Source: Vermiphilus sp. (GTDB taxonomy: Bacteria; Ratteibacteria; UBA8468; B48-G9; DTJG01). Taken from it: a DNA stretch of 55,159 nt. The translations under genes were made by a program, and so were the position numbers. Positions 28,000 to 43,929 of this stretch are shown here, piece by piece; within the stretch, counting starts at the first letter, position 1, and each line of letters starts with the position of its first letter. The notes beneath the pieces are model-generated. The model did no database searches. It was not told the DNA's origin and saw only the letters and a program-made list of their open reading frames with translations. The stretch is taken from positions 1 to 55,159 of the forward strand of contig DYKA01000001.1 in the NCBI GenBank assembly GCA_020722805.1, read 5' to 3'.

Positions 28000-28007
28000 A
28001 TAATAAT

Positions 28008-28016
28008 ATTTTATCA
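28008..28016 (-). promoter_or_regulatory. Extended -10 element TGATAAAAT, 8 nt upstream of the uppP ATG (candidate leaderless promoter)
   Basis: The minus strand reads tttgTGATAAAATattattatATG. No SD lies between the element and the start codon. Confidence 0.35.
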
Positions 28017-28113
28017 CAAATAGTAAATAATCAGTGAACCCATTTATGTTTTTTGCATGTACAGGATAAGCCAGTCCTGACATGCAAGATTATGTTTTTC
28101 AAATCCTGAATAG

Positions 28114-28130: not shown

Positions 28131-28802
28131 ATGAAAATTTCAGTGCTGATACCGGTTTATAATGAAAAAGACACAATAGTTGAAGTTCTGGAGAGGGTTT
28201 CATCCCTGCCGCTGGACAAAGAAATTATCGTTATTGATGATGGCTCAACCGACAATACCCGTCAGATTCTCAAAGAAATCTCTTCAAAAAACAAAAACAT
28301 ATGTGTTATATTGCAACCAGAAAACAGAGGAAAAGGTTGCGCAGTGAGGACAGGAATAGAGTTTGCTACAGGCGATTATGTTGTAATTCAGGATGCTGAT
28401 CTTGAACTGAATGTATCTGATATAACAAAACTCGTTGAGGCAGTAGATGAGAGACACGAAGTAATCTATGGCTCAAGATTCCTAACAAGGAATGAGTTTC
28501 CTTTTATGAACTATCTTGCAAACAGGTTTCTGACGCATCTGACAAATGTTTTCTATAGAGCCACTCTAACGGATATGGAAACCTGCTATAAACTGTGTTC
28601 GCGAAAGATTTTACTGGAATTACAATTGAAGTCCAGGGGATTTGAAATAGAGCCTGAGATAACCTGTAAAATCCTGAAGCGCGGTTACAAAATTAAAGAA
28701 ATTCCTGTTTCCTATAATCCGAGAAAAAAAGGCAAGAAGATAGGATGGAAGGATGGTTTCAGGGCAATATTTACAATCATGAGGTACAGGCTAAATGCAT
28801 AA
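28131..28802 (+). CDS. Family 2 glycosyltransferase, small soluble Dpm1/ArnC-like type (GT2 no. 1)
   Basis: ISVLIPVYNEKDTI, IIVIDDGSTDNT, ENRGKG and VVIQDADLE (DxD) motifs. At 223 aa it has no C-terminal TM hairpin. Paralog of the 34919 gene. Confidence 0.85.
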   Translation: MKISVLIPVYNEKDTIVEVLERVSSLPLDKEIIVIDDGSTDNTRQILKEISSKNKNICVILQPENRGKGCAVRTGIEFATGDYVVIQDADLELNVSDITKLVEAVDERHEVIYGSRFLTRNEFPFMNYLANRFLTHLTNVFYRATLTDMETCYKLCSRKILLELQLKSRGFEIEPEITCKILKRGYKIKEIPVSYNPRKKGKKIGWKDGFRAIFTIMRYRLNA

Positions 28803-30516
28803 GAAAAGGATACTTTACCTGTTATTTCTCGTAGTTATTACTGGTTTTTTTCATTTTGCAGGGATAAACTGGGGTATCCCTGAAAAAGGTCGCATCATCC
28901 TGGTATTCGGTGATAGGAGTACGATTGAAGGTCTTTCTGATTTAATGCGTGATACTCATACAGAAATACGAGAGATGCTGGCATTTTACGGGGCACCTTA
29001 TTGGTATGATTATAATCCGATGAAAAAAATTGAAGTCAAAATTGACGGCAAAAGGTTGCTGGTCTCAAGGGAAATCATAAATTCAATGAGAAGTTATCTT
29101 ATCAGGTCCTATGGGGCAGATGAACAGGCGGTTCTTGTAAGTTTAAGCAGGATGAATCCTTCAAGACTTGATTTTAATCCGCACTTTTTTGAATACGGTG
29201 GTGCATATCTTTATCCTGTTGGGGGTTTTCTGAAACTCTGTTCTTCCCTTGGAATTGCTGAAGTGCAGAAGGACATTACCTATTACTTTATGAATCCTGA
29301 TAAAATCGGCCGTCTTTATACAGTTTCAAGATGTTTGGGTGGACTTTTTTTTCTTTTTTCTGTTGTGGTTTTCTATTTCCTTTCTTTTTATATCTTGAGA
29401 GATGAAAACATCTCTTTTCTGATGGCTGTATTATTCGCAACTGCTCCTGTTTTCGTCATATGGTCTCATTATCTTAAACCCTATTGCTACGGCATACTGT
29501 GGGTTATCAGTGCCATTTATTTTGCTCTCAGATTTATGGATGAGAAAAAATCAAAGTGGCTGATTCTTGCTTCTTTATTTTCCGGGTTATCAATGGGTAG
29601 CATCCTTTCCTATGGATATGTTTTTCTAACTCTTATTTTCGTGGTTTTTTATATTTCACCAGATTTCAGAAATTTGCTCAAAAATATATCAATATCACTT
29701 TTTTGTTTTTTCTTTTCCTATCTCGTGACCAATCCATATGTTTTAATTTCCTTCAGGGAATTTATCAATGAAATCTCATACATTCAATCATACTGGAAAG
29801 GTTCTTTTAGTTTTGGTAATCTTGGATATTTTGCAATGACATCTCTCAGATATGGGCTTGGCACAGGAATCTGGCTTATTTTCTTGATTTCTCTTTTCAC
29901 TTGTTTCTTGTTGAAACCAGATAGAAAATTTATGTTGATTTTTTTGAGTATTCTATTAGGGTTTGTTTATTTTGGTCCTTCAACAGGAAGATGGGTCCAC
30001 TATGCATTCGTAATTTATCCCTATATTTTTCTTATTATAATTTTAGGTATGCTGAGATTAAGAAAACAATTTTCAAAAATACTGGTCTGCGCTGGAATAC
30101 TGTGGACATTTATCCTTTCGTTGTCGTATGTGAGTTTATTTTGCAGCGAGAATATAAGGACATACGTCGGAGCATGGATTAATAGTAATATTCCAGATGG
30201 TTCAAAAATCGGGCTCTTTGAAGCACCTTCTCCATGGAGAACGCCACCATTTCAATTTTTGAAATATAATATAATGATTGGTGCAGCAGAAGAAATAGTC
30301 AGGAATTCAGAGTATTTTGTCGTAAGTGAATATCAGTGGGTGAGGGGTGGCTCGCTTGAGGATATTAAGAAACTTCTATCTGATTATGAAATTGTCAGAG
30401 AGTTCAGAAAGGAACCAGGATTTTTGGGACTGGCATTCAGGCATCCTGAATCTATACCCTATGACTGGTGCCATCCAAATCCAGTTATGTTGATATGGAA
30501 AAGAAAAAGTTCTTAA
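28795..30516 (+). CDS. GT-C-like polytopic membrane glycosyltransferase, type A (573 aa)
   Basis: More than 10 hydrophobic segments. The long first loop carries DEQ-x14-DFNPHFFEY, followed by a soluble C-terminal domain. Paralog of the 42259 gene. Overlaps the upstream GT2 by 8 nt. Confidence 0.6.
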   Translation: MHKKRILYLLFLVVITGFFHFAGINWGIPEKGRIILVFGDRSTIEGLSDLMRDTHTEIREMLAFYGAPYWYDYNPMKKIEVKIDGKRLLVSREIINSMRSYLIRSYGADEQAVLVSLSRMNPSRLDFNPHFFEYGGAYLYPVGGFLKLCSSLGIAEVQKDITYYFMNPDKIGRLYTVSRCLGGLFFLFSVVVFYFLSFYILRDENISFLMAVLFATAPVFVIWSHYLKPYCYGILWVISAIYFALRFMDEKKSKWLILASLFSGLSMGSILSYGYVFLTLIFVVFYISPDFRNLLKNISISLFCFFFSYLVTNPYVLISFREFINEISYIQSYWKGSFSFGNLGYFAMTSLRYGLGTGIWLIFLISLFTCFLLKPDRKFMLIFLSILLGFVYFGPSTGRWVHYAFVIYPYIFLIIILGMLRLRKQFSKILVCAGILWTFILSLSYVSLFCSENIRTYVGAWINSNIPDGSKIGLFEAPSPWRTPPFQFLKYNIMIGAAEEIVRNSEYFVVSEYQWVRGGSLEDIKKLLSDYEIVREFRKEPGFLGLAFRHPESIPYDWCHPNPVMLIWKRKSS

Positions 30517-31709
30517 TCTATCTGACTGGGATTTTTCTCCTTGCATTGTTTCTGAGGATTGCTTTCATATCCACTCTTGATAATACTGTGGATGTCTGGG
30601 ACGACTGGTGGGATGAACTCGGCTGGAAATTAGCATCTGGTCAGGGCTACTGGGTGAACAATCCTTATTTCCCTGATGGTCCCGCTTATTTTTCATGGAG
30701 GGCGCCTGTGTTTCCGATATTTCTTGCACTGGTTTACAAAATATTCGGCCATAGTTATCTTGCAGCGAAAATCTGTCTGGCTATTGTTAGTTCTTTTACA
30801 TGTTTGCTGATTTATTTTATTTCAAAACTTTTTATGTCAGAAAAGCATTCTATTTTCGCTGCCTTGCTTTATGCAATATACCCTGCTTCAATCTTCTGGA
30901 CAGGGTATCTCGCTCCAGAAACACTTACAGCTTTTCTTCTTCTTCTTTTCGTTTATATTGTTTTTATTTCCTTTGATAGAAAGATTGGTTTTTCCCTTTT
31001 CGCAGGAATTATTTTTGGGGTAGCGGTTTTGTGCAGGTCAGCAATTCTTGTTCTTTTCCCTTTGGTACCCGTGGCCTATTTTCTGCTTCTGGATAAGAAC
31101 GTACTCAAGAAGTCCATTGTTTTTTTACTTGGCTTGATGGTAATCGTACCGTGGGTTGTGCGAAACTGGATTATTCATAATGCTTTTGTACTTATTTCAA
31201 CAGAGGGTGGGGTTGTCTTTTATATAGCCAACAATGAGTTTTCTCTATCTCAGGCATCAGGTTTTTATCATGCTGAGAACATTGAGGAATTCAAAGGTCT
31301 TTCTGAGGTTGAGACAGACAAAAAGTTTTACAGTATGGCTCTTGATTTCATAAGAAAACATCCTTTCACATATATCAGGTTGGTTGCAGACAGGTGTATT
31401 CGTTTCTGGCGTTTTTTCCCGCACACGATATCAGGGCCGGGTGAAAACTACAATATCAAACACCAGTTGATTGGTTTATTTTCTGAAACTCCTTTGATAA
31501 TCTTTGGTTTCTGTGGGATGCTGCTGACCGCAAGAAGATGGAGATACTTCTTCATTTTTTATGGCATTGTGATTGTCTATTCAGGGGTTTTGATATTAAT
31601 AAGAACAGCAATAAGATACAGATTTCCCTTGATGGGTATCCTTCTTATATTTTCAGTGTACTTTATAACAGAATTATTAAAGAGAAAGCGATTTTCCGAT
31701 GAACGCTGA
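30495..31709 (+). CDS. GT-C membrane glycosyltransferase, ArnT/PMT_2 (COG1807)-like, type B
   Basis: The first loop has WDDWWDELGW..ASGQGY. Also RAPVFPIFLA, IYPASIFWTGYLAPETL, PWVVRNW and IRYRFP motifs. Paralog of the 33744 gene. Start set at ATG 30495. Confidence 0.65.
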   Translation: MEKKKFLIYLTGIFLLALFLRIAFISTLDNTVDVWDDWWDELGWKLASGQGYWVNNPYFPDGPAYFSWRAPVFPIFLALVYKIFGHSYLAAKICLAIVSSFTCLLIYFISKLFMSEKHSIFAALLYAIYPASIFWTGYLAPETLTAFLLLLFVYIVFISFDRKIGFSLFAGIIFGVAVLCRSAILVLFPLVPVAYFLLLDKNVLKKSIVFLLGLMVIVPWVVRNWIIHNAFVLISTEGGVVFYIANNEFSLSQASGFYHAENIEEFKGLSEVETDKKFYSMALDFIRKHPFTYIRLVADRCIRFWRFFPHTISGPGENYNIKHQLIGLFSETPLIIFGFCGMLLTARRWRYFFIFYGIVIVYSGVLILIRTAIRYRFPLMGILLIFSVYFITELLKRKRFSDER

Positions 31710-32391
31710 TTTTGACCGAGTGGCAGATTTTTATGATGAAATCTTTTCAAGACATATCGTTGAATATTACCTCAAAAAAAGGGTCCTGTTTATCAAAAAA
31801 TATTTCGCTCATAAGAGAAAAATTATTGATATCGGCTGTGGAACCGGTGTTTTGATGGAGCGGCTTGTTGTGCATGGTTTTGATGTTTATGGGATAGACA
31901 GGTCAGAAAAAATGGTTGAAAAAGCATCTCAACGGCTGAATGAAGACGGAAAGGTTTTTGTGGCAGATGCCAGAGATTTACCTTTTCCTGATGATACCTT
32001 TGACGGAGCAATATGCATTGCGAGTTTACATCATATTGAACACGATTTTCAGGATGTTTTTCGCGAGGCATCAAGGATCTTGAAGCCAGGGGGCTATTTT
32101 CTGGTCTGGGACCACAATCCACTTAATCCATACTGGAAGATTATCATGCGAAAGGTTCCTCAGGATACAGGAAGAGAACATCTTTTTCTGTGCGCAGAGA
32201 TAGTCAGGCAGATGGAACTTAATAGTTTCAGGATTATCGTTGCCCGTAAGACAGGATTTGTTCCTGATTTTATCCCCTCATGGTTGCTTGGTTTATTTTC
32301 TGGTGTGGAAAAGGGGCTTGAAATGATTCCTGTCTTAAATTTATTTATGGCGCATAATGTTGTATTAGGAGAGAAAAATGTGGAGGAATAA
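31699..32391 (+). CDS. Class I SAM-dependent methyltransferase
   Basis: Motif I IIDIGCGTGVL, acidic loop YGIDRS, and post-I/II DARDLPFPDDTFD and LKPGG. Confidence 0.8.
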   Translation: MNADFDRVADFYDEIFSRHIVEYYLKKRVLFIKKYFAHKRKIIDIGCGTGVLMERLVVHGFDVYGIDRSEKMVEKASQRLNEDGKVFVADARDLPFPDDTFDGAICIASLHHIEHDFQDVFREASRILKPGGYFLVWDHNPLNPYWKIIMRKVPQDTGREHLFLCAEIVRQMELNSFRIIVARKTGFVPDFIPSWLLGLFSGVEKGLEMIPVLNLFMAHNVVLGEKNVEE

Positions 32392-33097
32392 AAAGATCAG
32401 TGTGATTTTTCCCACCTACAACGAAAAGGATTCAATCAGGACTGCGATTGAAGACTTTTTTGCGTCTGGTTTTGTTGATGAAATTATTGTCGTTAACAAT
32501 AATGCTGCAGAAGGTACTGATGAAGAGGTGAAGAAAACAAAGGCACGCCTTGTTTATGAAAAAAGACAGGGTTATGGATATGCTATATGGAAGGGGCTTG
32601 AAGAAGCCACAGGAGATTACCTTATTATTTCAGAACCAGATGGGACTTTTTCTGGGAGGGATGTTATTAAACTGCTTGCTTATTCAGATGATTTTGAATA
32701 CGTACTGGGAACAAGGACAACAAGAGAGTTGATATGGGAAGGCGCTAACATGGGCATTTTCCTGAAATGGGGAAACTGGGCTACAGCAAAGCTACTTGAA
32801 TTTTTATATAACACAACAACACTTACTGATGTTGGCTGTACAATGAGGTTGATAAAGAGGAATCTATATGAAAGGATAAGGCCGCATTTTACCATAGGAA
32901 CCCAGCATTTTGGTCCTGAATTAACGTTGCTTGTGGCAAAGTCTGGGGTGCGGTTTATTGAAATTCCTGTAAACTATAAGCCGAGGATAGGAAAATCTTC
33001 TGTAACAGGCAGTTTCAGGAAATCGTTTATCCTTGGCATGAAAATGATATTTCTCATTCTCAGGTATAGACTCAAAAGGATAAAGGCACTGAAATGA
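32378..33097 (+). CDS. Family 2 glycosyltransferase, Dpm1-like with variant motifs (GT2 no. 2)
   Basis: ISVIFPTYNEKDSI. VVNNNAAEGTD stands in place of DDGSTD, and SEPDGTF (32633-32641 = EPD) in place of DxD. First gene of a GT2-CE4-GT-C triad. Confidence 0.75.
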   Translation: MWRNKKISVIFPTYNEKDSIRTAIEDFFASGFVDEIIVVNNNAAEGTDEEVKKTKARLVYEKRQGYGYAIWKGLEEATGDYLIISEPDGTFSGRDVIKLLAYSDDFEYVLGTRTTRELIWEGANMGIFLKWGNWATAKLLEFLYNTTTLTDVGCTMRLIKRNLYERIRPHFTIGTQHFGPELTLLVAKSGVRFIEIPVNYKPRIGKSSVTGSFRKSFILGMKMIFLILRYRLKRIKALK

Positions 33098-33771
33098 TTC
33101 TTGCCTATCATAGAATAAATTCCTGGTATGTTAATGATGCGTTGAGCGTTTCAGCAGAAATGTTTGAGTTCCAGATAAGATTCCTGTTGAGAAAAGGATA
33201 CGAACCTGTTTCCCTGCGCCAGTATGTCAGAGAGAAAGATTCAGGAAAGGTTTTCTGTATTACATTTGACGATGGTTTTGCGGATAATTTTCTTGTAGCG
33301 TTTCCGATTATGAAAAAGTACGGAATAAAACCGACGATATTTCTCATTGCCCACAGTATTGGAACAGAAAAGATTCATGAAAAATACAAAGACAGGGAAA
33401 AAGACAGATATCTCAAATGGAAGGAGGTTCAGGATATGCTGAAAGCAGGCGTTGACTTTGGTTCACATACGCTTACCCATCCGAAATTAACTGAACTTTC
33501 AAGGAAGGATGCGTGGAACGAGATATTCGGGTCAAAAAAATTTATTGAAAAAAACATAGGTCAGAGAATTGATTTTTTCTGTTATCCATATGGAATTCAG
33601 AACGAAAAAGTCAGGGAGGCCGTCAAAAATGCGGGCTATCTTGGAGCAGTCATCACAAACTGGAAAGGCAAGCATGATTTATATTCGCTTCCGAGAATCG
33701 GTGTTTACGGACACAATTCCCTTTTTGCTTTCAGGGTAAAACTATGGCGGGCAAATCTTTTTTCAAGGTAA
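33094..33771 (+). CDS. Polysaccharide deacetylase (CE4 / NodB homology), no signal peptide
   Basis: TFDDGFADN (motif 1), HTLTHP (motif 2) and CYPYG (motif 3). The N-terminus MILAYHRI has no hydrophobic leader. Confidence 0.82.
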   Translation: MILAYHRINSWYVNDALSVSAEMFEFQIRFLLRKGYEPVSLRQYVREKDSGKVFCITFDDGFADNFLVAFPIMKKYGIKPTIFLIAHSIGTEKIHEKYKDREKDRYLKWKEVQDMLKAGVDFGSHTLTHPKLTELSRKDAWNEIFGSKKFIEKNIGQRIDFFCYPYGIQNEKVREAVKNAGYLGAVITNWKGKHDLYSLPRIGVYGHNSLFAFRVKLWRANLFSR

Positions 33772-34922
33772 TTTTTATTCTATTTCTCACAGGGTTTTTA
33801 ATCAGGATTGGATTTCTTTTTTCGCTTGGCCCGCATTTTTATTTTGATGATGAGTATGAATACTGGAAAATGGTGAGTAATTTTATTTCCGGTAAGGGAT
33901 TGATAGTATCAGAAACATTAAAAGCGTACAGACCTCCCGCCTATCCTCTGTTTATTGCAATCCTTGTTAGGCTGGGCATCCGGATAACAGGTATAAGAGT
34001 CATCCAGGCCGCTATTTCTTCAGCAACATCTATTCTTATCTACCTTCTTGGAAGAAAAATATTCAGTGAAAAGGTATCGTTTCTTGCAGCGATTGTCTGG
34101 TGTATTTATCCCTTCTCAATTTTTTATTCAGGGTTTCTTTTAACTGAGACGCTTTTTGTATTTCTTGTTGTGATATCTATTTTTTCATTCCTCAAGATTT
34201 TTGAATCCGGAATTCCACCCAGGTACGGGATTGTGCCTGGTTTTATGACAGGGCTTGCCGGTTTATGCAGACCAACAATGGAGCTTTTTTTCCCTTTTGC
34301 ACTTGTTCCTGTTTTTTTTACCGCAGGTTCATACAGAGTAAGATTGCTGAAAGTTCTCTTTATTGCAGCGGGTTTTGTTCTGGCTCTTTCCCCGTGGATT
34401 ATAAGAAATTTTGTTGTTTTCGGCAGGTTTATACCTGGAACAACCATGGGAGGCGCTGTCTTCTGGGAAGGGAACAATCCGTATTCAGATGGCGGACCGT
34501 GTAGGTATTTTCCAGAAGGTTTGTGGCAGGTTGAAGAGACAAGAAGAGACGGCATTTTTTATAAACTTACAATTGACTGCATAAAACAGGATCCTGAAAG
34601 ATTCATCCATCTGATGGTATGGAAATTTTTCAGATTCTGGAATGTTGTGCCAAACGCATCTGAATATAGCGGCTTTCTTTACCGTCTTATCAGCGTACTG
34701 AGTTTTGGAATGTTGCTTCCGTTTTTTGTGATGGGGCTATTTACTCCGCCCCTGAATCAAAAGAAACTGTTTCTGATGAGCATAATTGTTTTCTTTACGA
34801 TTTTCCATATGGTTTTTCTTGCTTCAATAAGATACAGATTTGCAATTGAACCACTTATTATCCTGTTTTCGTGTCAGGGGCTTTTCTGGCTTTATGAACG
34901 TATAAGGGGAATAAATCAATGA
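33744..34922 (+). CDS. GT-C membrane glycosyltransferase, ArnT/PMT_2-like, type B
   Basis: The first loop has FDDEYEYW..VSNFISGKG (DE..Y motif). Also RPPAYPLFIA, IYPFSIFYSGFLLTETL, PWIIRNF and IRYRFA motifs. 392 aa. Confidence 0.68.
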   Translation: MAGKSFFKVIFILFLTGFLIRIGFLFSLGPHFYFDDEYEYWKMVSNFISGKGLIVSETLKAYRPPAYPLFIAILVRLGIRITGIRVIQAAISSATSILIYLLGRKIFSEKVSFLAAIVWCIYPFSIFYSGFLLTETLFVFLVVISIFSFLKIFESGIPPRYGIVPGFMTGLAGLCRPTMELFFPFALVPVFFTAGSYRVRLLKVLFIAAGFVLALSPWIIRNFVVFGRFIPGTTMGGAVFWEGNNPYSDGGPCRYFPEGLWQVEETRRDGIFYKLTIDCIKQDPERFIHLMVWKFFRFWNVVPNASEYSGFLYRLISVLSFGMLLPFFVMGLFTPPLNQKKLFLMSIIVFFTIFHMVFLASIRYRFAIEPLIILFSCQGLFWLYERIRGINQ

Positions 34923-35599
34923 AAGTTTCTGTGATTATCCCTGTTTATAATGAGAAAAATACCATTGAAAAAGTTATTGAAAAGGTTAATGCTGTACCCA
35001 TTGATAAGGAAATTATTATTGTTGATGATGGCAGCACAGATGGAACAAGACAGATTCTTGAGAGAATTCTTGAACAAAAAGATCCCCGGATAAAGGTTAT
35101 TTTTCAACCGGAGAACATGGGCAAGGGATCTGCTATCAGAAGGGCAATCAACGAAATCACAGGAGATGTTGTTGTGATACAGGATGCGGATCTTGAATAT
35201 GAACCAATGGATTATCTTCGGTTGATAGACCCAATAAGGCAGGGTAAGTCCGATGTTGTTTATGGTTCAAGGGTACTGGGAAAAAATCCAGTATCTTCTT
35301 TTTCTTTCTATATTGGCGGAAGGTTTCTTTCTTTTCTTACCAATCTTCTTTACAGAACATCAATCACCGATGAGCCCACCTGTTATAAAATGTTTAGGGC
35401 TGATGTTCTCAGAAGTATAAAACTCAGATGCAGGGGATTTGAATTCTGTCCGGAAATAACTGCGAAGATTGCAAAAAGAAAAATCAGGATATATGAGGTT
35501 CCAATTGCGTACATACCACGTAGTATAAAAGAAGGGAAAAAAATCAGATGGAAGGATGGGCTGGTTGCGATATGGACACTGATAAGATACAGATTTTAG
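34919..35599 (+). CDS. Family 2 glycosyltransferase, small soluble Dpm1/ArnC-like type (GT2 no. 3)
   Basis: VSVIIPVYNEKNTI, IIIVDDGSTDGT, ENMGKG and VVIQDADLE motifs. Over the first ~90 residues more than half the positions match GT2 no. 1 by eye. Confidence 0.85.
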   Translation: MKVSVIIPVYNEKNTIEKVIEKVNAVPIDKEIIIVDDGSTDGTRQILERILEQKDPRIKVIFQPENMGKGSAIRRAINEITGDVVVIQDADLEYEPMDYLRLIDPIRQGKSDVVYGSRVLGKNPVSSFSFYIGGRFLSFLTNLLYRTSITDEPTCYKMFRADVLRSIKLRCRGFEFCPEITAKIAKRKIRIYEVPIAYIPRSIKEGKKIRWKDGLVAIWTLIRYRF

Positions 35600-36399: not shown

Positions 36400-36441
36400 A
36401 CTTCCTAACTTATGAATTTTGCTCAGGATACAGGGTATTGA

Positions 36442-36450
36442 TGTTATAAT
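36442..36450 (+). promoter_or_regulatory. Extended -10 element TGTTATAAT, 9 nt upstream of the ATG at 36460
   Basis: It sits in the only intergenic gap inside the island (60 nt). An AAGGA lies between the -10 and the ATG, so a short conventional leader is also possible. Confidence 0.35.
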
Positions 36451-36459
36451 ATAAAGGAA

Positions 36460-37470
36460 ATGAAAAAGATACTTATTACTGGTGGTGCAGGTTTTATCGG
36501 CACAAATCTTGCGCTGAAGTTTGTGAAGAATTCTGACAGCGCGGTTATTGTTTATGATAATCTCTCAAGGAAGGGTGCGAGTAACAATATTGATTTTCTC
36601 CTCAGGCAAAACTTCAGGAATCTTGAGTTTATCCGTGGTGATATAAGAGATGTAAGGCTGTTGAAAACGGCTGTTTCAGGTGCTGATTGCGTTTTTCATC
36701 TTGCAGCACAGGTCGCCGTTACAACCTCTGTTGAAGAGCCTGTTGAAGATTTTGAAGTAAATGCCATGGGAACGTTATATCTTCTTGAAACGTGCAGAAA
36801 ATACGCAAAAGATGCATTTTTCCTGTATGCTTCAACAAACAAGGTCTATGGGGATCTTTCCGGCTTAAAACTCAAAGAACTCAAGACCAGATACGTTCTT
36901 GCTGACAGAACCAATGGTATCACTGAAGATGAACCACTGGATTTTTATTCACCATACGGATGTTCAAAAGGTTCGGCAGACCAGTATGTAAGGGATTACC
37001 ACAGGATATATGGTTTGAAAACAGTGGTATTCAGACAGTCGTGCATCTACGGACCTTATCAGCACGGTAATGCGGATCAAGGCTGGGTTGTACATTTTAT
37101 CAATCAGGCAATGGCAGAGAAAACAATCACAATCTATGGCGATGGCAAACAGGTGAGGGATATACTTTACATTGACGACCTTATGGATGCATATCTACGG
37201 GTATTGAAGAATCAGAATAAGTGCTGTGGCAGGATTTTTAATGTGGGTGGAGGTGTAAGAAACTCGTTTTCACTTCTTGAGTTGATTCAGTACATGGAAG
37301 AAATACTCGGTAAGAAAATAGAAGTGGATTTCAAAAGCTGGAGACCAGGAGATCAGAAGGTTTTCATCAGTGATAATACAAACCTGAAGAAAGCAACAGC
37401 ATGGAAACCAAGAATAACAAAACAGCATGGAATAAAAAAACTGATTGAGTGGATAAAGGAAAACACATGA
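36460..37470 (+). CDS. Extended-SDR NAD-dependent sugar epimerase (resembles the CDP-paratose/tyvelose 2-epimerase group)
   Basis: ILITGGAGFIGTNL Rossmann motif, STNKVYGD, and YSPYGCSKGSADQYVRDY (YxxxK). Confidence 0.7.
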   Translation: MKKILITGGAGFIGTNLALKFVKNSDSAVIVYDNLSRKGASNNIDFLLRQNFRNLEFIRGDIRDVRLLKTAVSGADCVFHLAAQVAVTTSVEEPVEDFEVNAMGTLYLLETCRKYAKDAFFLYASTNKVYGDLSGLKLKELKTRYVLADRTNGITEDEPLDFYSPYGCSKGSADQYVRDYHRIYGLKTVVFRQSCIYGPYQHGNADQGWVVHFINQAMAEKTITIYGDGKQVRDILYIDDLMDAYLRVLKNQNKCCGRIFNVGGGVRNSFSLLELIQYMEEILGKKIEVDFKSWRPGDQKVFISDNTNLKKATAWKPRITKQHGIKKLIEWIKENT

Positions 37471-38795
37471 GGAAAATTGGTATTATTGGAACAGGTCATG
37501 TTGGTCTTGTTACAGGTGCCTGTTTTGCAAAACTGGGCAATAGGGTGATATGTGTTGACAGCGATATCACAAAGATAGAGAAACTCAAAAAATGCATTGT
37601 ACCTTTTTACGAACCGGGACTTGAAGAACTTGTCAAAAAACAGACAACAGACAAAAACCTCCGATTTTCGCACTCAATGGATGAACTGGTGAGCTCATCT
37701 GAAATTATTTTTATTTGTGTTGGCACTCCCTCAAATCTGGATGGAAGGGCAGATCTTTCTTATGTTGAACAGGCATCAATACAAATAGCAGAATCACTTA
37801 ACAAAATCAAGAATGAAAAATCCAAAATGAACAATTATAGATTGATAGTTGAAAAAAGCACTGTACCTGTTTTGACGGGTCAGTGGGTAAAAAGAACAAT
37901 AGAACTTGTTGCTCCCACAGGGGTCAATTTTGATCTTGCTGCAAACCCTGAATTTTTGAGAGAAGGGAATGCTATAAGAGATTTTTTCCATCCTGACAGG
38001 ATAATTGTCGGGGTGGAAAATAAAAGGGCACAGCACATATTCAAAGAACTCTACAGACCGATAAAAGCACCCATAATTTTTACTGATGTGAAAAGTGCAG
38101 AAATTATTAAACACGCTTCAAATTCTTTTCTTTCCATGAAAATATCATATATAAATGCAATTTCTCAAATATGTGAAAAGGTCGGAGCAGATGTTGAAAT
38201 GATAGCAGAAGGTATGGGTGCAGACAGGAGAATAGGAAAGGATTTTCTCAGGGCAGGAATTGGCTATGGTGGGTCCTGTTTCCCTAAAGACATAAGAGCA
38301 TTTATCTCTATTGCAGAGGAACTGGGTTATGAGTTTGGGCTTTTGAAAGAAGTTGAAAAGATAAACAACCAGCAGAAAAATATTGTTATCAAGAAGGCAA
38401 GAGATCTTTTATGGAATTTGAGAGAAAAAGTGGTCGGGATTCTCGGGTTATCTTTTAAGCCTGGAACAGACGATATCAGAGAAAGTCCCTCAATAGGAAT
38501 AATTCAATTGCTTCTGGACGAAGGATGTGTGGTGAAGTGTTATGATCCCAGGGCTATGGAAAACATGAAAAGATTGATTCCTGATATACACTATGGAAAA
38601 GATGTTTACGACACTGCGGAAGGCAGTCATCTTCTGATATTCGCAACAGAGTGGGATGAGTTCAAAAATTTGGATTTTAAGAAGATTCTGCGGCTGATGA
38701 GGACGCCTTATATCATAGATGGAAGAAATTTTCTTGATGCAAGATATCTTAAAAGTATTGGATTTACTTACTCAGGAATCGGGAGAAGGGTATGA
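37467..38795 (+). CDS. ugd: UDP-glucose 6-dehydrogenase
   Basis: IGIIGTGHVGLVTGACFA, EKSTVPV, NPEFLREG and GGSCFPKD (catalytic Cys) motifs. ATGA overlap with the preceding gene. Confidence 0.92.
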   Translation: MRKIGIIGTGHVGLVTGACFAKLGNRVICVDSDITKIEKLKKCIVPFYEPGLEELVKKQTTDKNLRFSHSMDELVSSSEIIFICVGTPSNLDGRADLSYVEQASIQIAESLNKIKNEKSKMNNYRLIVEKSTVPVLTGQWVKRTIELVAPTGVNFDLAANPEFLREGNAIRDFFHPDRIIVGVENKRAQHIFKELYRPIKAPIIFTDVKSAEIIKHASNSFLSMKISYINAISQICEKVGADVEMIAEGMGADRRIGKDFLRAGIGYGGSCFPKDIRAFISIAEELGYEFGLLKEVEKINNQQKNIVIKKARDLLWNLREKVVGILGLSFKPGTDDIRESPSIGIIQLLLDEGCVVKCYDPRAMENMKRLIPDIHYGKDVYDTAEGSHLLIFATEWDEFKNLDFKKILRLMRTPYIIDGRNFLDARYLKSIGFTYSGIGRRV

Positions 38796-39730
38796 ACACT
38801 GTCATAACAGGAGGGGCAGGTTTTCTTGGCAGCCATCTGTGCGATGCACTGGTGTGCAGGGGAGATTCAGTTCTGTGTGTTGATAATCTGATTACTGGTT
38901 CTCGTAAGAACATTGAGCACTTACTGAATATGCCCAATTTCAGATTTATTGAGGTGGATATTACTCACGATGAAATTGAAAAACATCTTCCTTTCGTGCC
39001 TGACATAATTTTTCATCTTGCAAGTCCGGCATCCCCGCAGGATTACATACGTTTCCCTGTTGAAACACTTCGTGTAAACTCCATCGGGACAGAACAATGT
39101 CTCAATCTTGCAAAAAGAGCAAAGGCAAAACTGCTTTTCTCATCCACATCTGAGGTTTATGGAGATCCTTTGATAAGTCCGCAGAAAGAGACCTACTGGG
39201 GAAATGTTAATCCTGTTGGTCCAAGGTCAGTATATGATGAAGGGAAGAGATACGGTGAGGCGCTGGTCATGGCTTATCACAGGTTGTACGGGCTTAAGAC
39301 ATATCTTCCGAGGATTTTTAATACATACGGGCCGAGAATGCGTCTTGATGATGGCAGGGTTATACCGAATTTTATTTCACAGGCCATGCTTGGAAAACCT
39401 TTTACGATATATGGAGATGGAAAACAGACAAGGAGTTTCTGTTATGTGGATGATCTGATTTCAGCTTTTTTGGTTCTGGTAGAAACTGATTATCATCTTC
39501 CTGTAAACCTCGGCAACCCCGATGAATTTACAATCATTGAACTTGCTGAAAAAATCAACAGTATCACAGGATTGAACCTATCATGTGAATTTCTTGACCC
39601 GTTGCCTGATGACCCTAAACAGAGAAGGCCTGATATTACACTCGCAAGAAAAATTCTTGGATGGTCTCCAGTTGTAAATCTTGATGAGGGCCTCAGAAGA
39701 ACTTTGAACCATTACCTGGAGAAAAAATGA
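38792..39730 (+). CDS. uxs: UDP-glucuronate decarboxylase (UDP-xylose synthase)
   Basis: ITGGAGFLGSHLCD, SSTSEVYGDP, YDEGKRYGEAL, RIFNTYGPRM..DDGRVIPNF and DDPKQRRPDI motifs, all typical of UXS. Confidence 0.88.
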   Translation: MNTVITGGAGFLGSHLCDALVCRGDSVLCVDNLITGSRKNIEHLLNMPNFRFIEVDITHDEIEKHLPFVPDIIFHLASPASPQDYIRFPVETLRVNSIGTEQCLNLAKRAKAKLLFSSTSEVYGDPLISPQKETYWGNVNPVGPRSVYDEGKRYGEALVMAYHRLYGLKTYLPRIFNTYGPRMRLDDGRVIPNFISQAMLGKPFTIYGDGKQTRSFCYVDDLISAFLVLVETDYHLPVNLGNPDEFTIIELAEKINSITGLNLSCEFLDPLPDDPKQRRPDITLARKILGWSPVVNLDEGLRRTLNHYLEKK

Positions 39731-40854
39731 AAAAGGTGCTTGTTACCGGCGGTGCGGGATTTATAGGAAGCCATCTCTGTAATGCGCTCCTTGAAAGAAA
39801 TTACAGGGTTATTGTTTTTGACAATCTTGATGAACAGGTTCACCCCAGTAAGAGGATTCCAGAATATCTCAGTAGAAGTGTTGATTTTATCAGGGGAGAT
39901 GTGAGAAATTACGAAAAGTTAAAAGAAGCAGTGTGTGATAGCGACTATATCTTACATTTTGCGTCTGCAGTTGGGGTGGGACAATCCCAGTATCAGATTT
40001 CAAAATATGTAAATACGAACATTTGCGGCACTGCCAATCTTTTTGACATTCTTGTCAACAGCCGGCACCACGTGAAAAAGATAATCGTGGCTGCGTCAAT
40101 GAGCAGTTATGGTGAGGGCATGGCAAGGTGCAAAAAATGTGGGGTTTTTAAACCTGAGTTAAGGAATCTTTCCGAAGGCACACCAGTAAAAGAAACTGAA
40201 TACTGGGAAATAAAATGTCCTTCCTGCGGAAAGGTTGCACTTTCAGTGCCAACAGATGAAAATGCTTCTCTTGATGCTAATTCTATATATGCAATTACCA
40301 AGAAAGAACAGGAAGAGATGTGTCTACTTGTTGGAAGGATATATGGAATTCCAGTTGTTTCTCTGAGGTTTTTTAATGTCTATGGACCTCATCAGTCGTT
40401 GAGCAATCCGTATACTGGAGTTACTGCGATATTCATCAGCAGGATAAAAAACAACAACCCTCCTGTTATATTTGAGGATGGACTTCAAACAAGGGATTTT
40501 ATCTGGGTTGGAGATGTTATCAGAGCAAACATTCTTGCCCTTGAAAGCGAAAAGGCAAACTATCATTGTTTTAATGTCGGGACAGGAAAACCAGTCAGCA
40601 TTCTTGAGGTGGCTCAAGTTCTTATTAGATTATCAGGAAAGAAAATAAGACCCCTCATTACTTATAGATTCAGAAAAGGAGATGTAAGACACTGCTTTGC
40701 AGATGTAAAGAAAATAAGAAAAATTCTTGGATTCAGGGCAGACACATCCTTCAAAAAGGGTATGTCAGAACTGTTGAAATGGTCTGATTCTGTGCATGCG
40801 GATGACAGATTTGGCCGTGTAATGAGAGAGTTAAGAAAGAAGAAACTTGTATGA
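39727..40854 (+). CDS. Extended-SDR NAD-dependent epimerase/dehydratase with an inserted Cys4 zinc ribbon
   Basis: VLVTGGAGFIGSHLCN; ASMSSYG (catalytic Ser region); YAITK (Y188/K192). About 40 extra residues with C135-x2-C138...C164-x2-C167 lie between them. Confidence 0.75.
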   Translation: MKKVLVTGGAGFIGSHLCNALLERNYRVIVFDNLDEQVHPSKRIPEYLSRSVDFIRGDVRNYEKLKEAVCDSDYILHFASAVGVGQSQYQISKYVNTNICGTANLFDILVNSRHHVKKIIVAASMSSYGEGMARCKKCGVFKPELRNLSEGTPVKETEYWEIKCPSCGKVALSVPTDENASLDANSIYAITKKEQEEMCLLVGRIYGIPVVSLRFFNVYGPHQSLSNPYTGVTAIFISRIKNNNPPVIFEDGLQTRDFIWVGDVIRANILALESEKANYHCFNVGTGKPVSILEVAQVLIRLSGKKIRPLITYRFRKGDVRHCFADVKKIRKILGFRADTSFKKGMSELLKWSDSVHADDRFGRVMRELRKKKLV

Positions 40855-41564
40855 AAAAACAATGTTTCTTGAGTATTATCATCCCGGCAAGAAATGAACA
40901 GGACCTTATTGCTTCAACGATTGACAGCATTTTGCTATTTGTGGATATAAGCTGCTCTGAGATTATTGTTGTTAACGACCATTCCAGCGATGCGACCCCT
41001 TCAATCGTTGAAAAAATTTCCGAGGAGCATCAGGAAGTGAAACTTGTTCACAATAAAGAATCTGCAGGATTTGCCGCTGCATTGAAAACAGGTTTTGAAA
41101 GTGCCTCAGGTGAATTTGTTGTCCCTGTTATGGCTGATGGATGCGATGACCCGAAAACAATACCTTTTATGATTGAAAAAGCAAAGGCAGGATACGACCT
41201 TGTTTGTGGGTGCCGCTATATGAAAAATGCAGGGAAAACAGGAGGACCAAAACTGCAGGGATTTTTTTCAAAATTCGTCTGCCTGTCCTTGCATTTTCTT
41301 ACGGGAATTCCAACAAGAGATATCTCAAATGCTTTCAAACTGTACCGACTGAGGATTCTTCGGAATATTCATTTAAGAGAAAAGGGCTTTGCTGTTTCAA
41401 TGGAGATTGCATTAAATTTCTATTTCAGGGGTTGCAAGATTTGTGATGTTCCAACCTTCTGGAAAGGAAGAAAAAAAGGGAAATCAAAATTCAAAATAAC
41501 AAAAAGTTTTCCGTACCTGAAGCTTTACATGCAGACAGTGATCAAGTCATGGACAAGAATTTAG
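40851..41564 (+). CDS. Family 2 glycosyltransferase, Dpm1-like (GT2 no. 4)
   Basis: LSIIIPARNEQDLI and IIVVNDHSSDAT motifs. MADGCDDP stands in place of DADLQH. 237 aa with no TM segment. Confidence 0.75.
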   Translation: MKKQCFLSIIIPARNEQDLIASTIDSILLFVDISCSEIIVVNDHSSDATPSIVEKISEEHQEVKLVHNKESAGFAAALKTGFESASGEFVVPVMADGCDDPKTIPFMIEKAKAGYDLVCGCRYMKNAGKTGGPKLQGFFSKFVCLSLHFLTGIPTRDISNAFKLYRLRILRNIHLREKGFAVSMEIALNFYFRGCKICDVPTFWKGRKKGKSKFKITKSFPYLKLYMQTVIKSWTRI

Positions 41565-42262
41565 AAATTTCCGTAGTGATTCCTGCATACAATGAGGAAA
41601 GGAGGATTGAAAAGACAATTCATATCATACATGACTACCTGAAAAATCAGGGCTATCATTTTGAGATTATTGTCGTGGATGACGGCAGCACTGATTCAAC
41701 GGCAAATCTGATGTTAATAATCTTAAAAAAACTCGGCAACATCAGATTAATTTCTCACAAAAAAAACATGGGCAAGGGGGCTGCCGTCAGGTCAGGTGTT
41801 CTTGCTTCAACAGGAGATATAACGCTCTTTACTGATGCTGACCTTTCAACTCCCATAGTCGAACTGGAAAAGATGAAAATCTATTTGCAGAACGGATATG
41901 ACATCGTAATCGGTTCAAGGAAAAAAAAGGAATCATCAATTCCTGTTCCGCAGCCATGGCACAGAAGATTTTCTGGCTGGGTTTTTCAGTTTCTTGTCAG
42001 AAAAATCCTGGGACTTCCGTTTTCGGATACCCAGTGCGGATTCAAACTTTTCAAAACAGATGTTGCAAGGTCTCTTTTTCTGAATATGAAACACAGAGGA
42101 TTTACTTTTGATGTTGAAATCCTGTACAATGCACTGAAAAATGGATACAAAGTTAAGGAAACCGGGGTTGTCTGGATGAACTCAAAAAATACAACTGTAA
42201 GATTTTTCAGGGATTCTATTTATATGTTTCTTGATTTGTTAAAGATACGGTTCAAAAGATGA
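41549..42262 (+). CDS. Family 2 glycosyltransferase, dolichyl/polyprenyl-phosphate beta-glucosyltransferase-like (GT2 no. 5)
   Basis: ISVVIPAYNEERRI, IIVVDDGSTDST, KNMGKGAAV, LFTDADLSTP and DTQCGFKLF motifs. The next gene, a type A GT-C, overlaps it by 4 nt. Confidence 0.85.
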   Translation: MDKNLEISVVIPAYNEERRIEKTIHIIHDYLKNQGYHFEIIVVDDGSTDSTANLMLIILKKLGNIRLISHKKNMGKGAAVRSGVLASTGDITLFTDADLSTPIVELEKMKIYLQNGYDIVIGSRKKKESSIPVPQPWHRRFSGWVFQFLVRKILGLPFSDTQCGFKLFKTDVARSLFLNMKHRGFTFDVEILYNALKNGYKVKETGVVWMNSKNTTVRFFRDSIYMFLDLLKIRFKR

Positions 42263-43925
42263 AAAAAACGCCTTATCCTTTACTGATTATTGTTTTGTTT
42301 TCAGGTTTCTTATATCTTACTGGAATCAGATGGGGATTGCCTTCAGAAGGGGCAAAGAAATTTTATGTCGGAGATATAAATATTTCCCGGGAGTATCTTA
42401 AACGCGGCTGGGAAATCTCCAGAGAGAACCTCCCTGAAAAACTGCCGAGGTCGCGCTTTAATGCAATTCGTTCATTTCATCCTGATGAGCAAAATATTCT
42501 GAAGAGTATCATCTCAATGAGTCCGGAAAGGTTTGATTTCAATCCGCACTTTTTTGAGTATCCTTCCTGTCAAATATACCTTGTTGCAGCTGTGTTGAAG
42601 GTCATTTCTGAAACAGGCCTGATAGTCATAAAGCCCGATGCCTCTTATTATTTCCAGAATCCAGAGGAAATGGCAAAAATCTATCTTACAGGCAGAATGA
42701 CAACTGTATTGATGGCTATTTTGGGGCTGATTTTTTTTTACGACGCTGCCCTGATACTGTGCGGGAAATATGGTGCTATCTTTTCAACCGCATGTCTCGG
42801 GTTCTGCCCTTTATACGCAATAAACAGCCACTATATGACAGTTGATGTTCCTATGGTTTTCTGGATTACAGTTTTCCTTTTCCTGACTGCTCTGTCTGTG
42901 AAGAGGGGTAGATTTTCTTATATTGTGGCTTCTGCCTTTGTTTCAGGAATCGCAGCAGGAACAAAATATCCTGCGGGAATACTTATATTTCTGCTACCCT
43001 TTGTGTACTATGGAACCTGTAAAAAATCTCCTGTGAGATCTATCTTTGATATCGGAGCATTGTTTTTTCTGTTTCTTGCTGGTTTCTTGATAACGACCCC
43101 CTATTCTGTGATTGCGTTTGATGAATTCAAGAGAGACATTTTATATCAGGCATCGGCAAGAGGAGTTGGTTTTTCTGCCATCTTCAATCATGTCAGTTCT
43201 ATGATTGACTTTTTCAGGGCACTCTGGGTTGGTTCATGGTTACTTCTGTTTTTGTTTGTTCCTTCAGTGTACTTCCTTGCAAAGAGGCGAATTTTTGAAG
43301 ACAGGATAATTCTCACAGCTTTAGTCCTGGCGATTGTACCACTTCTTGTTGCTGGAGGTTTCAAGTATGCCAGATACTATTTGATAGCACTTCCCTTTTT
43401 ATGTTTGAGCACGGGTTCTCTTCTTGATGAATTTTTTCAGATACAAAAAAAGAAGATAAAACTTTTTGCGATTTCATTGTGTATTTTAATTTTGATGTTT
43501 GTTTCCGTTAAGTCTGTAGCTTATTCAAAACTAATGTGCGGGAAGGACATAAGAATTACAACAGCAGAATACGTGGACAAACAATTTCCTCAGGGCACAA
43601 AGATTGTGTTCACAAAAGACCCGTGGATATTTGAGGTTCCACCAGTGAATCCCGAAAAGTTTTCGGTACATATCATAGAGGAGTCAGGTCTTGAAAAAGC
43701 ACCCTCAACCTGTTATTTGATTATAGGAGAATTGCAGTATTTCCTTACATCTGGAAACAGAAACATCCAGATGCAGCGGGAAATTGTTTACATTCAGGAA
43801 AAAGGTTTTGTGCTGAAAAAGATTTTTGCAAATCATGCTGGTTTTGGACTGCTTCGTTTTGACGATAACTGGACAATTCACGATATGCTTTATACCCATC
43901 CTGGAATTCTGCTTTTTTACAAGCC

Positions 43926-43929
<4 letters not shown>
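42259..43929 (+). CDS. GT-C-like polytopic membrane glycosyltransferase, type A (556 aa)
   Basis: Same architecture as the 28795 gene: TM1 with GIRWGLPS, HPDEQ-x14-DFNPHFFEY (42484-42561), more than 10 TM segments and a C-terminal soluble domain. Confidence 0.6.

Follow-up and report, generated by a model that had tools for sequence, protein, structure and literature searches.

The window analyzed here, a 55,159-nucleotide stretch of a Vermiphilus sp. genome (GTDB lineage Bacteria; Ratteibacteria; UBA8468; B48-G9; DTJG01; contig DYKA01000001.1 of assembly GCA_020722805.1), carries at positions 28131-43929 a glycosylation locus that is probably a stack of four to five Gtr-type modules, combined with donor synthesis, lipid-sugar deacetylation and methylation, and decorating a conventionally built glycan. 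The locus comprises 16 co-directional genes on the plus strand, which overlap by 4-50 bp and are interrupted by a single gap of 60 bp (36400-36459). According to a Pfam census, these genes encode five proteins of glycosyltransferase family 2 (GT2), four PMT_2 proteins, considered here as candidate transferases of the GT-C fold, one carbohydrate esterase of family 4 (CE4), two class I methyltransferases, Ugd and three extended short-chain dehydrogenases/reductases (SDRs). Every gene listed in a previous reading of this DNA, made from its letters without database searches (hereafter the sequence-only reading), was recovered at its position by Pfam and by an open reading frame (ORF) check. Among the components of the proposal, the mechanism of the modules, in which a GT2 synthase supplies a GT-C transferase, appears highly likely, and the assignment of the acceptor to the class of conventionally built envelope glycans is tentative, at just short of an even chance.

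In the proposed mechanism, each GT2, devoid of transmembrane (TM) segments, would be located at the inner face of the membrane, held there by an amphipathic helix, by its GT-C partner or by both, and would move one sugar from a nucleotide sugar onto polyprenyl phosphate. A flippase encoded outside the locus would bring the lipid-linked sugar to the outer face, where the GT-C, through catalytic acidic residues in its first outer loop, would pass it to an envelope acceptor. Donor synthesis is predicted for the right half of the locus, which would yield UDP-glucuronate, UDP-xylose, at least one 4-epimer and a 2-epimer. The CE4 enzyme, being cytoplasmic, may de-N-acetylate an amino sugar on its lipid carrier prior to translocation, in the way known from Arn and Lgm, and methyl groups would be added by the two methyltransferases. 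The acceptor glycan itself would be begun and built by phosphoglycosyltransferase (PGT), GT4, Wzx and Wzy_C-type enzymes encoded elsewhere in the genome. If this is true, Ratteibacteria devote ~16 kb of a small genome to the multi-sugar decoration of one envelope structure, and the decorating sugars would be a pentose or uronic acid, a de-N-acetylated amino sugar and methylated residues, which informs on the surface of an uncultured phylum. The candidate synthases and transferases, with lengths in amino acids (aa), are the following:

28131..28802, plus strand: GT2a, TM-less polyprenyl-phosphate sugar synthase candidate, 223 aa, DAD at residue 88 (PF00535, E 3e-39)
28795..30516, plus strand: GTC-A, 573 aa, long first outer loop (ADEQ...DFNPHFFEY) and C-terminal soluble domain (PMT_2, 25.9 bits, which falls 0.2 bits short of the 26.1-bit cut-off)
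30495..31709, plus strand: GTC-B, 404 aa, WDDWWDE past TM1 (PMT_2, 54 bits; the start at 30495 matches the NCBI gene call)
32378..33097, plus strand: GT2b, TM-less GT2 synthase candidate, 239 aa, EPD replacing DAD (PF00535, E 3e-19)
33744..34922, plus strand: GTC-C, 392 aa, FYFDDE past TM1 (PMT_2, 54 bits)
34919..35599, plus strand: GT2c, TM-less GT2 synthase candidate and partner of GTC-C, 226 aa (PF00535, E 1e-39)
40851..41564, plus strand: GT2d, TM-less GT2 synthase candidate, 237 aa, MAD replacing DAD (PF00535, E 5e-29)
41549..42262, plus strand: GT2e, TM-less GT2 synthase candidate, 237 aa, with DAD, directly upstream of GTC-D (PF00535, E 2e-30)
42259..43929, plus strand: GTC-D, 556 aa, HPDE in the first outer loop and a C-terminal alpha/beta domain at residues 448-555 (PMT_2, 35.5 bits)

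Among solved structures, all five GT2s match PfDPMS, ArnC and GtrB best, through alignments that reach to ~15-60 residues short of the C-terminus. The closest relatives are PfDPMS (5mlz, E 4e-21), ArnC and GtrB for GT2a, PfDPMS and ArnC for GT2b, and ArnC (E 7e-18), PfDPMS and GtrB for GT2e, and GT2d aligns with PfDPMS across residues 7-225 (E 1e-20). The best curated families are AglJ, PgfS, ArnC, PpgS and a haloarchaeal dolichyl-phosphate (Dol-P) hexose transferase, with PgfS at the top for GT2e. The DAD motif is kept in GT2a, GT2c and GT2e. Pairwise identity is 53% between GT2a and GT2c and 24-33% for the other pairs, and this divergence suggests that several different lipid-linked donors are made. 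A Kyte-Doolittle scan of the five proteins revealed no typical TM segment, the sole segment above the threshold (GT2d residues 23-42) lying within the catalytic domain. All five carry a C-terminal basic amphipathic helix (hydrophobic moment muH 0.46-0.58) at the point where the TM domain of DPMS, GtrB or ArnC would begin, and they are thus probably peripheral membrane proteins rather than freely soluble enzymes.

On the transferase side, an acidic motif is present in the first outer loop of all four GT-Cs, and their Lys/Arg-rich N-termini, considered together with the positive-inside rule, would place this loop on the outer side. The model of GTC-C, built with 57 homologues, is of high quality (pLDDT 93, pTM 0.92) and shows roughly ten TM helices; its significant Foldseek matches in the PDB are GT-C enzymes only (STT3, AglB, PglB, Pmt4, ALG9 and ArnT), and in the family of 57 sequences D36, E135 and R176 are invariant, D36 being part of the FYFDDE motif just past TM1. 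GTC-B shares 28% identity with GTC-C, its DD motif aligning with the invariant D36, and a phmmer search of GTC-B against the PDB gave no match even at E <= 1. The model of GTC-D (37 homologues; pLDDT 89, pTM 0.91) likewise matched GT-C enzymes only at E <= 0.001 (STT3, ALG12, ArnT, AftB/AftD and Pmt4), and across both models the GT-C matches also include ALG3, AftA, Emb and PimE. GTC-A and GTC-D are 25% identical across 560 aa (E 1e-40) and have the C-terminal alpha/beta domain in common, and D76-E77 of the HPDE motif is invariant in 37 sequences, an alignment in which GTC-A is included as a row. An exhaustive profile search placed 3,493 representatives in this unnamed family at E <= 1e-30.

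Several observations couple the synthases to the transferases. Reading frames overlap by 4-8 bp at three junctions between a GT2 and a GT-C gene, namely GT2a/GTC-A (8 bp, 28795-28802), GTC-C/GT2c (4 bp, 34919-34922) and GT2e/GTC-D (42259-42262), and the adjacencies GT2a-GTC-A, GTC-C-GT2c and GT2e-GTC-D are conserved across relatives, the first of them without exception. GT2e-like genes paired with a GT-C gene recur in Ignavibacteria and Bacteroidota (loci L074-L081). In two homologous proteins, P0052 (624 aa) and P0117 (665 aa), one chain combines a GTC-C homologue at the N-terminus, a short linker and then a GT2c homologue. With a cytoplasmic GT2 at the C-terminus of the fusion, the C-terminus of the GT-C would be cytoplasmic as well, in agreement with the ~10 TM helices of the GTC-C model. 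Such a fusion couples a donor synthase straight to its transferase, and it bears on the question of who flips polyprenyl-phosphate monosaccharides. The pairing of GT2b and of GT2d with particular GT-Cs remains putative. These results agree with much of what the sequence-only reading had proposed: the assignment of the GT2s to the Dpm1/ArnC/GtrB class is consistent with their closest solved structures and curated families, the GT-C fold with acidic residues in the first loop was found in the GTC-C and GTC-D models and, for the motif, in all four proteins, the two start/stop overlaps it had pointed out are real and are joined by that of GTC-C/GT2c, and the docking of synthases on membrane partners is backed by the natural fusions. 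Its description of the GT2s as soluble enzymes lacking a C-terminal TM hairpin stands in its second part, and a peripheral attachment through the amphipathic helix fits better than solubility.

An alternative interpretation of the same proteins is that the GT2s are ordinary cytoplasmic extenders of a lipid-linked oligosaccharide and the GT-C-like proteins polymerases, ligases or flippases. Small soluble GT2s acting on undecaprenyl-pyrophosphate glycans exist, PglI is among the weaker matches, the curated-family scores of the GT2s are all below cut-offs, and Agl23, an archaeal protein similar to PMT, translocates lipid-linked glycans (PMC11182771). The best full-length match of every GT2 is nevertheless a polyprenyl-phosphate synthase and not an enzyme of the PglI type, the GT-C::GT2 fusions and the 1:1 pairing fit a donor synthase working with a transferase, and the acidic residues of loop 1 are invariant in the GT-Cs, all of which makes this interpretation highly improbable.

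GT2b is much better conserved than any other gene of the locus (81-89% identity in the clade, vs 45-70% for neighbouring genes). Even in Hydrogenedentota its identity amounts to 70-75%, and the gene follows immediately after a PMT_2 gene there, in a housekeeping context (L083 8001-8744; L084 8001-8735). These PMT_2 partners were considered as orthologues of the GT-Cs of the locus and rejected, their BLAST similarity not being meaningful. A synthase that stays constant while the adjoining GT-C varies past BLAST recognition reproduces the pattern of GtrB and GtrC, in which a conserved synthase serves a variable, acceptor-specific transferase. GT2b with a PMT_2 gene looks like a widespread two-gene system that neither the curated families nor the source annotations examined name. 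Two uncharacterised families thus emerge, GT2b (TM-less, 70% identical across phyla and found beside a PMT_2 gene) and the ~560-aa GT-C family of GTC-A and GTC-D.

The setting of the modules was surveyed in related genomes, using one genome per species. The survey comprised 77 loci, in which ORFs were labelled by BLAST against the window proteins and additional genes were verified with Pfam; neighbourhoods included 10-kb flanks, and tiers were set by identity at GTC-C. Numbers of loci with each additional gene class were as follows:

Nearest tier (58-70%), 11 loci: GT4 0, AsnB-like 0, Wzx 0, WecA 0; Wzy_C-TPR in 3; full uppP-queA order repeated
Mid tier (~50%), 30 loci: GT4 11, AsnB-like 15, Wzx 2, WecA 0; extra GT-C-like gene after MT2 in 12
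Far tier (39-44%), 7 loci: GT4 5, AsnB-like 4, Wzx 1, WecA 1 (in L043, WecA and Wzy_C-TPR beside GTC-C-GT2c)
Other phyla, 31 loci: GT4 13, AsnB-like 11, Wzx 1, WecA 3

The same gene order is repeated in ~10 independent contigs of metagenome-assembled genomes at 58-70% identity, and the arrangement is therefore not due to chance. Within this nearest tier, some genomes present a fifth GT-C that replaces the methyltransferase MT1. Across relatives, the MT1 slot holds MT1 in L009, L012 and L038, and a GTC-A-like gene (a third large GT-C) in L002, L006, L007 and L014. In the mid tier three blocks persist and are separable, corresponding to GT2a-GTC-A, to GTC-B...GT2b-CE4-GTC-C-GT2c-MT2 and to SDR1-Ugd-Uxs-SDR3-GT2d-GT2e-GTC-D. 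The proposition that the 16 genes travel together holds for relatives at 58-70%, which preserve the whole order from uppP to queA, and gives way at ~50%, where the blocks can separate. It is also in these more distant loci that genes of conventional polysaccharide synthesis adjoin the modules: L038 presents GT4-GT4-AsnB followed by the entire locus, and L019 reads Wzx-...-GT4-GT4-AsnB-GT2a-GTC-A-CE4-GTC-C. As to whether the locus is a fragment of a conventional locus, relatives at 58-70% speak against it, and at ~50% and below the modules are contiguous with GT4, AsnB or Wzx genes and, in one case, with WecA and Wzy_C-TPR.

Two further features were observed in the mid tier. In 12 of its 30 loci, MT2 is followed by an additional polytopic protein of 480-516 aa (e.g. 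L004 12635-14131; L037 16044-17564; L018 11862-13337) that carries FWCDE past TM1 and has either no Pfam match or a sub-threshold one to PMT_2; these proteins are probably further diverged GT-C enzymes. An AsnB-like glutamine amidotransferase of ~634 aa is almost always located upstream of the GT2/GT-C modules (L004 7362-9266; L037 4928-6835; 13 other loci), and also adjoins GTC-C homologues in Alphaproteobacteria (L069-L072); it is absent from the window. The presence of this gene in relatives is a hint that the target glycan contains an amidated uronic acid.

Two lines of reasoning lead from these data to the decoration of a conventional glycan. Since synthases and GT-Cs are present in a ratio of ~1:1 and the synthases have diverged, the likeliest arrangement is one particular residue per GT-C, which amounts to decoration and not to polymerization from one donor. 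Since the modules lie beside GT4, AsnB, Wzx, WecA and Wzy_C genes in relatives, an envelope glycan of conventional origin is the most likely acceptor and the locus, with a Wzy_C-TPR gene nearby, is probably not a self-contained pathway. The opposite possibility, of a self-contained glycan assembled outside the cytoplasm from polyprenyl-phosphate monosaccharides in the manner of mycobacterial arabinan and mannan, and with no cytoplasmic backbone, would account for the lack of PGT, GT4 and Wzx genes in the locus and within 10 kb in the 11 nearest relatives. It would also suit the up to 5 GT-Cs per locus seen in relatives with their 10-kb flanks, including the GT-C-like extras of 480-516 aa, and the occurrence of AftA, AftB, AftD, Emb and PimE among the Foldseek matches of GTC-D. 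Systems that build such polymers supply many GT-Cs from one or two donors (PMC3485146), however, and not from diverged synthases at ~1:1; in the next tier of relatives, GT4, AsnB-like and Wzx genes directly adjoin these modules; the view of the genome is restricted to the 55 kb of the window; and the glycan would still require a primer acceptor. Self-contained assembly is accordingly regarded as improbable.

Of the two outcomes that the sequence-only reading had offered, multi-sugar decoration of a single acceptor thus fits best and assembly of the mycobacterial type fits poorly, given the ~1:1 ratio of synthases to GT-Cs. Its view of the locus as relying on lipid-linked monosaccharides only is correct for gene content: within 28131-43929, Pfam detected no PGT, GT1 or GT4, Wzx or ABC exporter, or Wzy polymerase, and these absences hold together with that of a small flippase (Pfam and a scan of ORFs of at least 40 aa). 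The same view does not extend to self-sufficiency, given the GT4, AsnB, Wzx and WecA genes of relatives and the Wzy_C-TPR gene three genes upstream.

A number of points weigh against decoration of a conventional glycan by Gtr-type modules. The curated-family scores of all GT2s are below the equivalog cut-offs, so that their specificity for polyprenyl phosphate is a homology-based prediction, and the metal-binding motifs of GT2b (EPD) and GT2d (MAD) are non-canonical. GTC-A and GTC-B are classed by homology only, the structural models having been made for GTC-C and GTC-D. The CE4 enzyme could act on a nucleotide sugar or another cytoplasmic molecule instead of a lipid-linked sugar. Finally, neither in the window nor in any of the 11 nearest relatives does a PGT, GT4, Wzx or small flippase gene occur within 10 kb of the locus, and with no backbone genes at that distance a conventional backbone pathway in this genome is an assumption.

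The remaining genes of the locus are predicted to supply and tailor the sugars:

31699..32391, plus strand: MT1, class I S-adenosylmethionine (SAM) methyltransferase (Methyltransf_11, E 1.6e-27)
33094..33771, plus strand: CE4 de-N-acetylase, signal-less and TM-less (cytoplasmic), with TFDDG and HTLTH motifs (Polysacc_deac_1, E 1.6e-29)
35572..36399, plus strand: MT2, SAM methyltransferase with an N-terminal Cys4 ribbon (Methyltransf_23, E 2e-20)
36460..37470, plus strand: SDR1, nucleoside diphosphate (NDP)-sugar 2-epimerase-like protein of the CDP-tyvelose 2-epimerase family (phmmer against the PDB: 9rl0, E 3e-101; 1orr, E 4e-92)
37467..38795, plus strand: Ugd, UDP-glucose 6-dehydrogenase (three UDPG_MGDP_dh domains; NCBIfam TuaD, 509 bits, and NDP-sugar dehydrogenase, 448 bits)
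38792..39730, plus strand: Uxs, UDP-glucuronate decarboxylase (UDP-xylose synthase), closer to human UXS1 (4gll, 2b69; E 2e-102) than to ArnA (E 1e-25)
39727..40854, plus strand: SDR3, GalE-type nucleotide-sugar 4-epimerase with a 34-residue Cys4 insertion that splits its GalE/Epimerase matches

The closest solved relatives of SDR3 are 4-epimerases of UDP-hexose, UDP-N-acetylhexosamine (UDP-HexNAc) and UDP-glucuronate (UDP-GlcA), and from the enzyme classes present it is plausible that the donors include UDP-GlcA, UDP-xylose (UDP-Xyl), a 4-epimer (UDP-galacturonate, UDP-L-arabinose or a HexNAc epimer) and a 2-epimer. The Cys4 insert of SDR3 (residues 135-168, 40129-40230) is zinc-ribbon-like and similar to the ribbon of MT2 (Cys4 at residues 11-36, 35602-35679); the corresponding epimerase of relatives matches SDR3 in length (374-375 aa), and MT2 comes after GT2c in most relatives. 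No hydrophobic N-terminus or segment was found in the CE4 protein, which adjoins GTC-C in 33 of 41 related loci. Among solved structures it is nearest to PplD (6dq3, E 3e-15), an extracellular enzyme that acts as a de-N-acetylase on the linkage unit (GlcNAc-1-phosphate) of rhamnopolysaccharides in streptococci, and the matches of the CE4 protein do not include ArnD. ArnD and LgmC deprotect a lipid-linked sugar before it is flipped, and a cytoplasmic CE4 enzyme placed between a GT2 and a GT-C recalls that role.

These tailoring genes bear on two other candidate acceptors. If the locus modified lipid A or the lipopolysaccharide (LPS) core, as systems of the Arn, Lgm, Flm or Rgt type do, an amino sugar, uronic acid or pentose would tune surface charge; Ugd, an ArnC-class GT2, CE4 and an ArnT-like PMT_2 GT-C follow the Arn/Lgm logic, and in several sources homologues carry the names 'ArnT family' or '4-amino-4-deoxy-L-arabinose transferase-like'. 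In Rhizobium, one synthase and several ArnT-like GT-Cs put galacturonate on LPS. Yet the locus encodes neither an ArnA-type formyltransferase nor an ArnB-type aminotransferase, its decarboxylase is of the UXS1 type (E 2e-102, vs 1e-25 for ArnA), ArnE/F are absent from it, no lpx or waa genes occur in the window, and a polysaccharide is suggested by the GT4, AsnB and Wzx genes that accompany the modules in relatives. A lipid A or core acceptor is hence considered quite unlikely. Comparably low probability is given to O-glycosylation of Ser/Thr-rich regions in secreted or membrane proteins (S-layer proteins, pilins, disordered linkers), as performed by PMT/Ppm1 in actinobacteria and PgfS/PgfM in streptococci. 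Its basis lies in the Pfam PMT_2/PMT matches, the NCBI label 'glycosyltransferase family 39' on homologues, PgfS as the top curated match of GT2e, and the invariant loop-1 D-E pair of GTC-A and GTC-D, a pair that PMTs also carry in loop 1; a streptococcal system that glycosylates proteins in this manner is reported in PMC12041528. Against this stand the lack of a MIR domain in all four GT-Cs (Pfam), Foldseek rankings in which PMT-family structures are not the top matches, a UDP-GlcA/UDP-Xyl supply and a CE4 enzyme that suggest complex glycan chemistry, and again the GT4, AsnB and Wzx genes co-located in relatives.

Transfer of the lipid-linked sugars across the membrane is the step for which the locus lacks an evident gene. 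Between the genes of 28131-43929 there is no free ORF of at least 40 aa, and no family of the GtrA/SMR or MATE/Wzx type is represented in this interval; among relatives, L004, L019 and L046 have a gene of the Wzx type. The lack of flippase genes in the locus and in the closest relatives, together with the GT-C::GT2 single-chain fusions, raises the prospect, considered unlikely, that GT2:GT-C complexes or a GT-C-like paralogue flip the lipid-sugar themselves, as is reported for the PMT-like Agl23, or that the whole glycan is assembled outside the cytoplasm without any conventional pathway. Weak matches of GTC-A and GTC-B to TIGR03663 (Agl23) were discarded as evidence of a flippase, since they correspond only to the shared PMT_2 core and reach 29 bits against a cut-off of 126. 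Three relatives have a SatD-family protein (PF16264) and a protein of 110-114 aa inserted between GT2b and CE4 (L015 4772-5771; L016; L032 8293-9308). The smaller protein has three hydrophobic segments and no Pfam match, and may be a flippase candidate.

Placed among known systems, the locus is closest in its logic to Gtr. Three-component systems of this kind are built around a GT2 synthase in Gtr of Shigella and Salmonella and a polyprenyl phosphoribose synthase in the pentofuranose systems of Citrobacter, and proteins of the SMR or MATE type can act as their flippase (PMC11127046). As in Gtr, a lipid-phosphate sugar synthase is predicted to work with a GT-C that adds one sugar outside the cytoplasm, and GT2b with its changing neighbours would reproduce the combination of conserved synthase and variable GT-C. 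Unlike Gtr, the locus has no GtrA/SMR or MATE flippase gene, its synthases lack the C-terminal TM hairpin of GtrB, and it stacks four to five modules together with nucleotide-sugar genes, CE4 and methyltransferases.

Stacking itself has a precedent in the serotype c carbohydrate (SCC) of Streptococcus mutans, where the GT2s SccN and SccP and the GT-Cs SccM and SccQ share one locus and the flippase has not been identified (PMC11754754). Both loci contain more than one synthase/GT-C pair, and each SCC pair adds its own residue to a conventionally made polysaccharide. SCC, however, combines two synthases with two GT-Cs, both pairs transferring glucose, within a rhamnan locus that is complete and includes an ABC exporter, whereas the present locus has five and four genes, respectively, several predicted sugars and no backbone genes in its neighbourhood in this clade. 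The statement of the sequence-only reading that known systems pair one GT2 with one GT-C was thus too strict, in view of the two-plus-two arrangement of SCC (PMC11754754) and of the Ppm1 donor shared by several GT-Cs (PMC3485146). The likeness to Arn and Lgm lies at the level of enzyme classes, namely Ugd, an ArnC-class GT2, a CE4-type enzyme and an ArnT-like GT-C, the last three being adjacent in GT2b-CE4-GTC-C-GT2c. The ArnC-family scores of the GT2s are nonetheless 23-78 bits against a cut-off of 529, and unlike Arn and Lgm the locus has no formyltransferase, aminotransferase or ArnE/F, a decarboxylase of the UXS1 type and a CE4 enzyme closest to PplD.

TM-less synthases with membrane partners are also known from mycobacteria, in Ppm1/D2 and PpgS; Ppm1 makes the mannose donor for the GT-Cs of lipomannan and lipoarabinomannan synthesis, and a GalNAc-derived donor ends as an amino sugar of the polymer (PMC3485146). 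The GT2s of the locus resemble the mycobacterial and corynebacterial Ppm1/Ppm2 and PpgS/Rv3632/Rv3779 systems in being TM-less and in a predicted cooperation with, or in homologues a fusion to, a membrane partner, after which GT-Cs would use the lipid-sugar. They differ in that the mycobacterial partner (Ppm2 or Rv3632) is not the GT-C, which here is the fusion partner, and the locus departs from mycobacterial polymer assembly in having five GT2s for four GT-Cs, mostly in adjacent pairs, instead of one donor for many GT-Cs. Genes for a phosphoribosyl pyrophosphate-dependent donor are likewise absent from the locus by Pfam. The archaeal pairs Agl22/Agl23 and AglJ/AglS share small GT2s similar to Dol-P-hexose synthases and PMT-like polytopic partners. 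Agl23 has been proposed as a flippase (PMC11182771), and unlike it the proteins of the locus keep catalytic residues of the transferase type and score far below the TIGR03663 cut-off. The class of mechanism is already known, and S. mutans provides an earlier case of stacked pairs; the locus differs from these systems in its scale (5+4), its uniformly TM-less synthases, the GT-C::GT2 fusion and the built-in supply of UDP-Xyl and epimers.

Two genes to the left of the locus complete the picture of its surroundings:

27229..28083, minus strand: uppP/bacA, undecaprenyl-diphosphate phosphatase, left flank of the locus, lipid-carrier recycling (PF02673 BacA, E 1.8e-64)
23792..25588, minus strand: Wzy_C (O-antigen ligase/polymerase-like) membrane protein with C-terminal TPR, 598 aa (Wzy_C, 48 bits; cut-off 31.7)

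The Wzy_C-TPR gene is the only gene in the window related to conventional Wzx/Wzy/ABC machinery and is located three genes beyond uppP, outside the coordinates of the locus. The order Wzy_C-TPR, pyrD, pyrK, uppP, locus is retained in L007, L011 and L012, in which the uppP flank is thus kept, and the Wzy_C-TPR gene is possibly linked to the locus. Both flanking genes had been described as divergently transcribed, which applies to uppP; queA is co-directional with the locus and overlaps GTC-D by 4 bp. The surroundings within the window are otherwise of a housekeeping nature (ribosomal protein operon, pnp, metG, pyrD/pyrK, queA, tgt, yajC, valS). A foreign or mobile island was considered and rejected: the GC content inside the locus (0.36-0.40) is only slightly lower than outside it (0.39-0.42), and a tRNA scan of the window found no tRNA genes. 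This is a resident chromosomal locus and not a mobile island.

The two operons put forward by the sequence-only reading (28131-36399 and 36460-44933) remain putative: scans for promoters and terminators gave no excess over shuffled controls (55 vs 52 and 18 vs 15, respectively). The gap at 36400-36459 holds a putative extended -10-like element, TGTTATAAT (36443-36451), ~8 nt upstream of the start codon of SDR1. Relatives of the proteins of the locus are labelled Candidatus Ratteibacteria, Omnitrophota or TA06, and according to a preprint the Omnitrophica genomes of public databases correspond to Ratteibacteria in GTDB, within the PVC (Planctomycetes-Verrucomicrobia-Chlamydiae) group. Further to the left in the window, a gene for a secretion ATPase of the PilB/T2SSE type is located at 14794-15894, between the rpoA-rplQ end of the ribosomal cluster and purD, and a T2SSE gene is also found at the left edge of L004.

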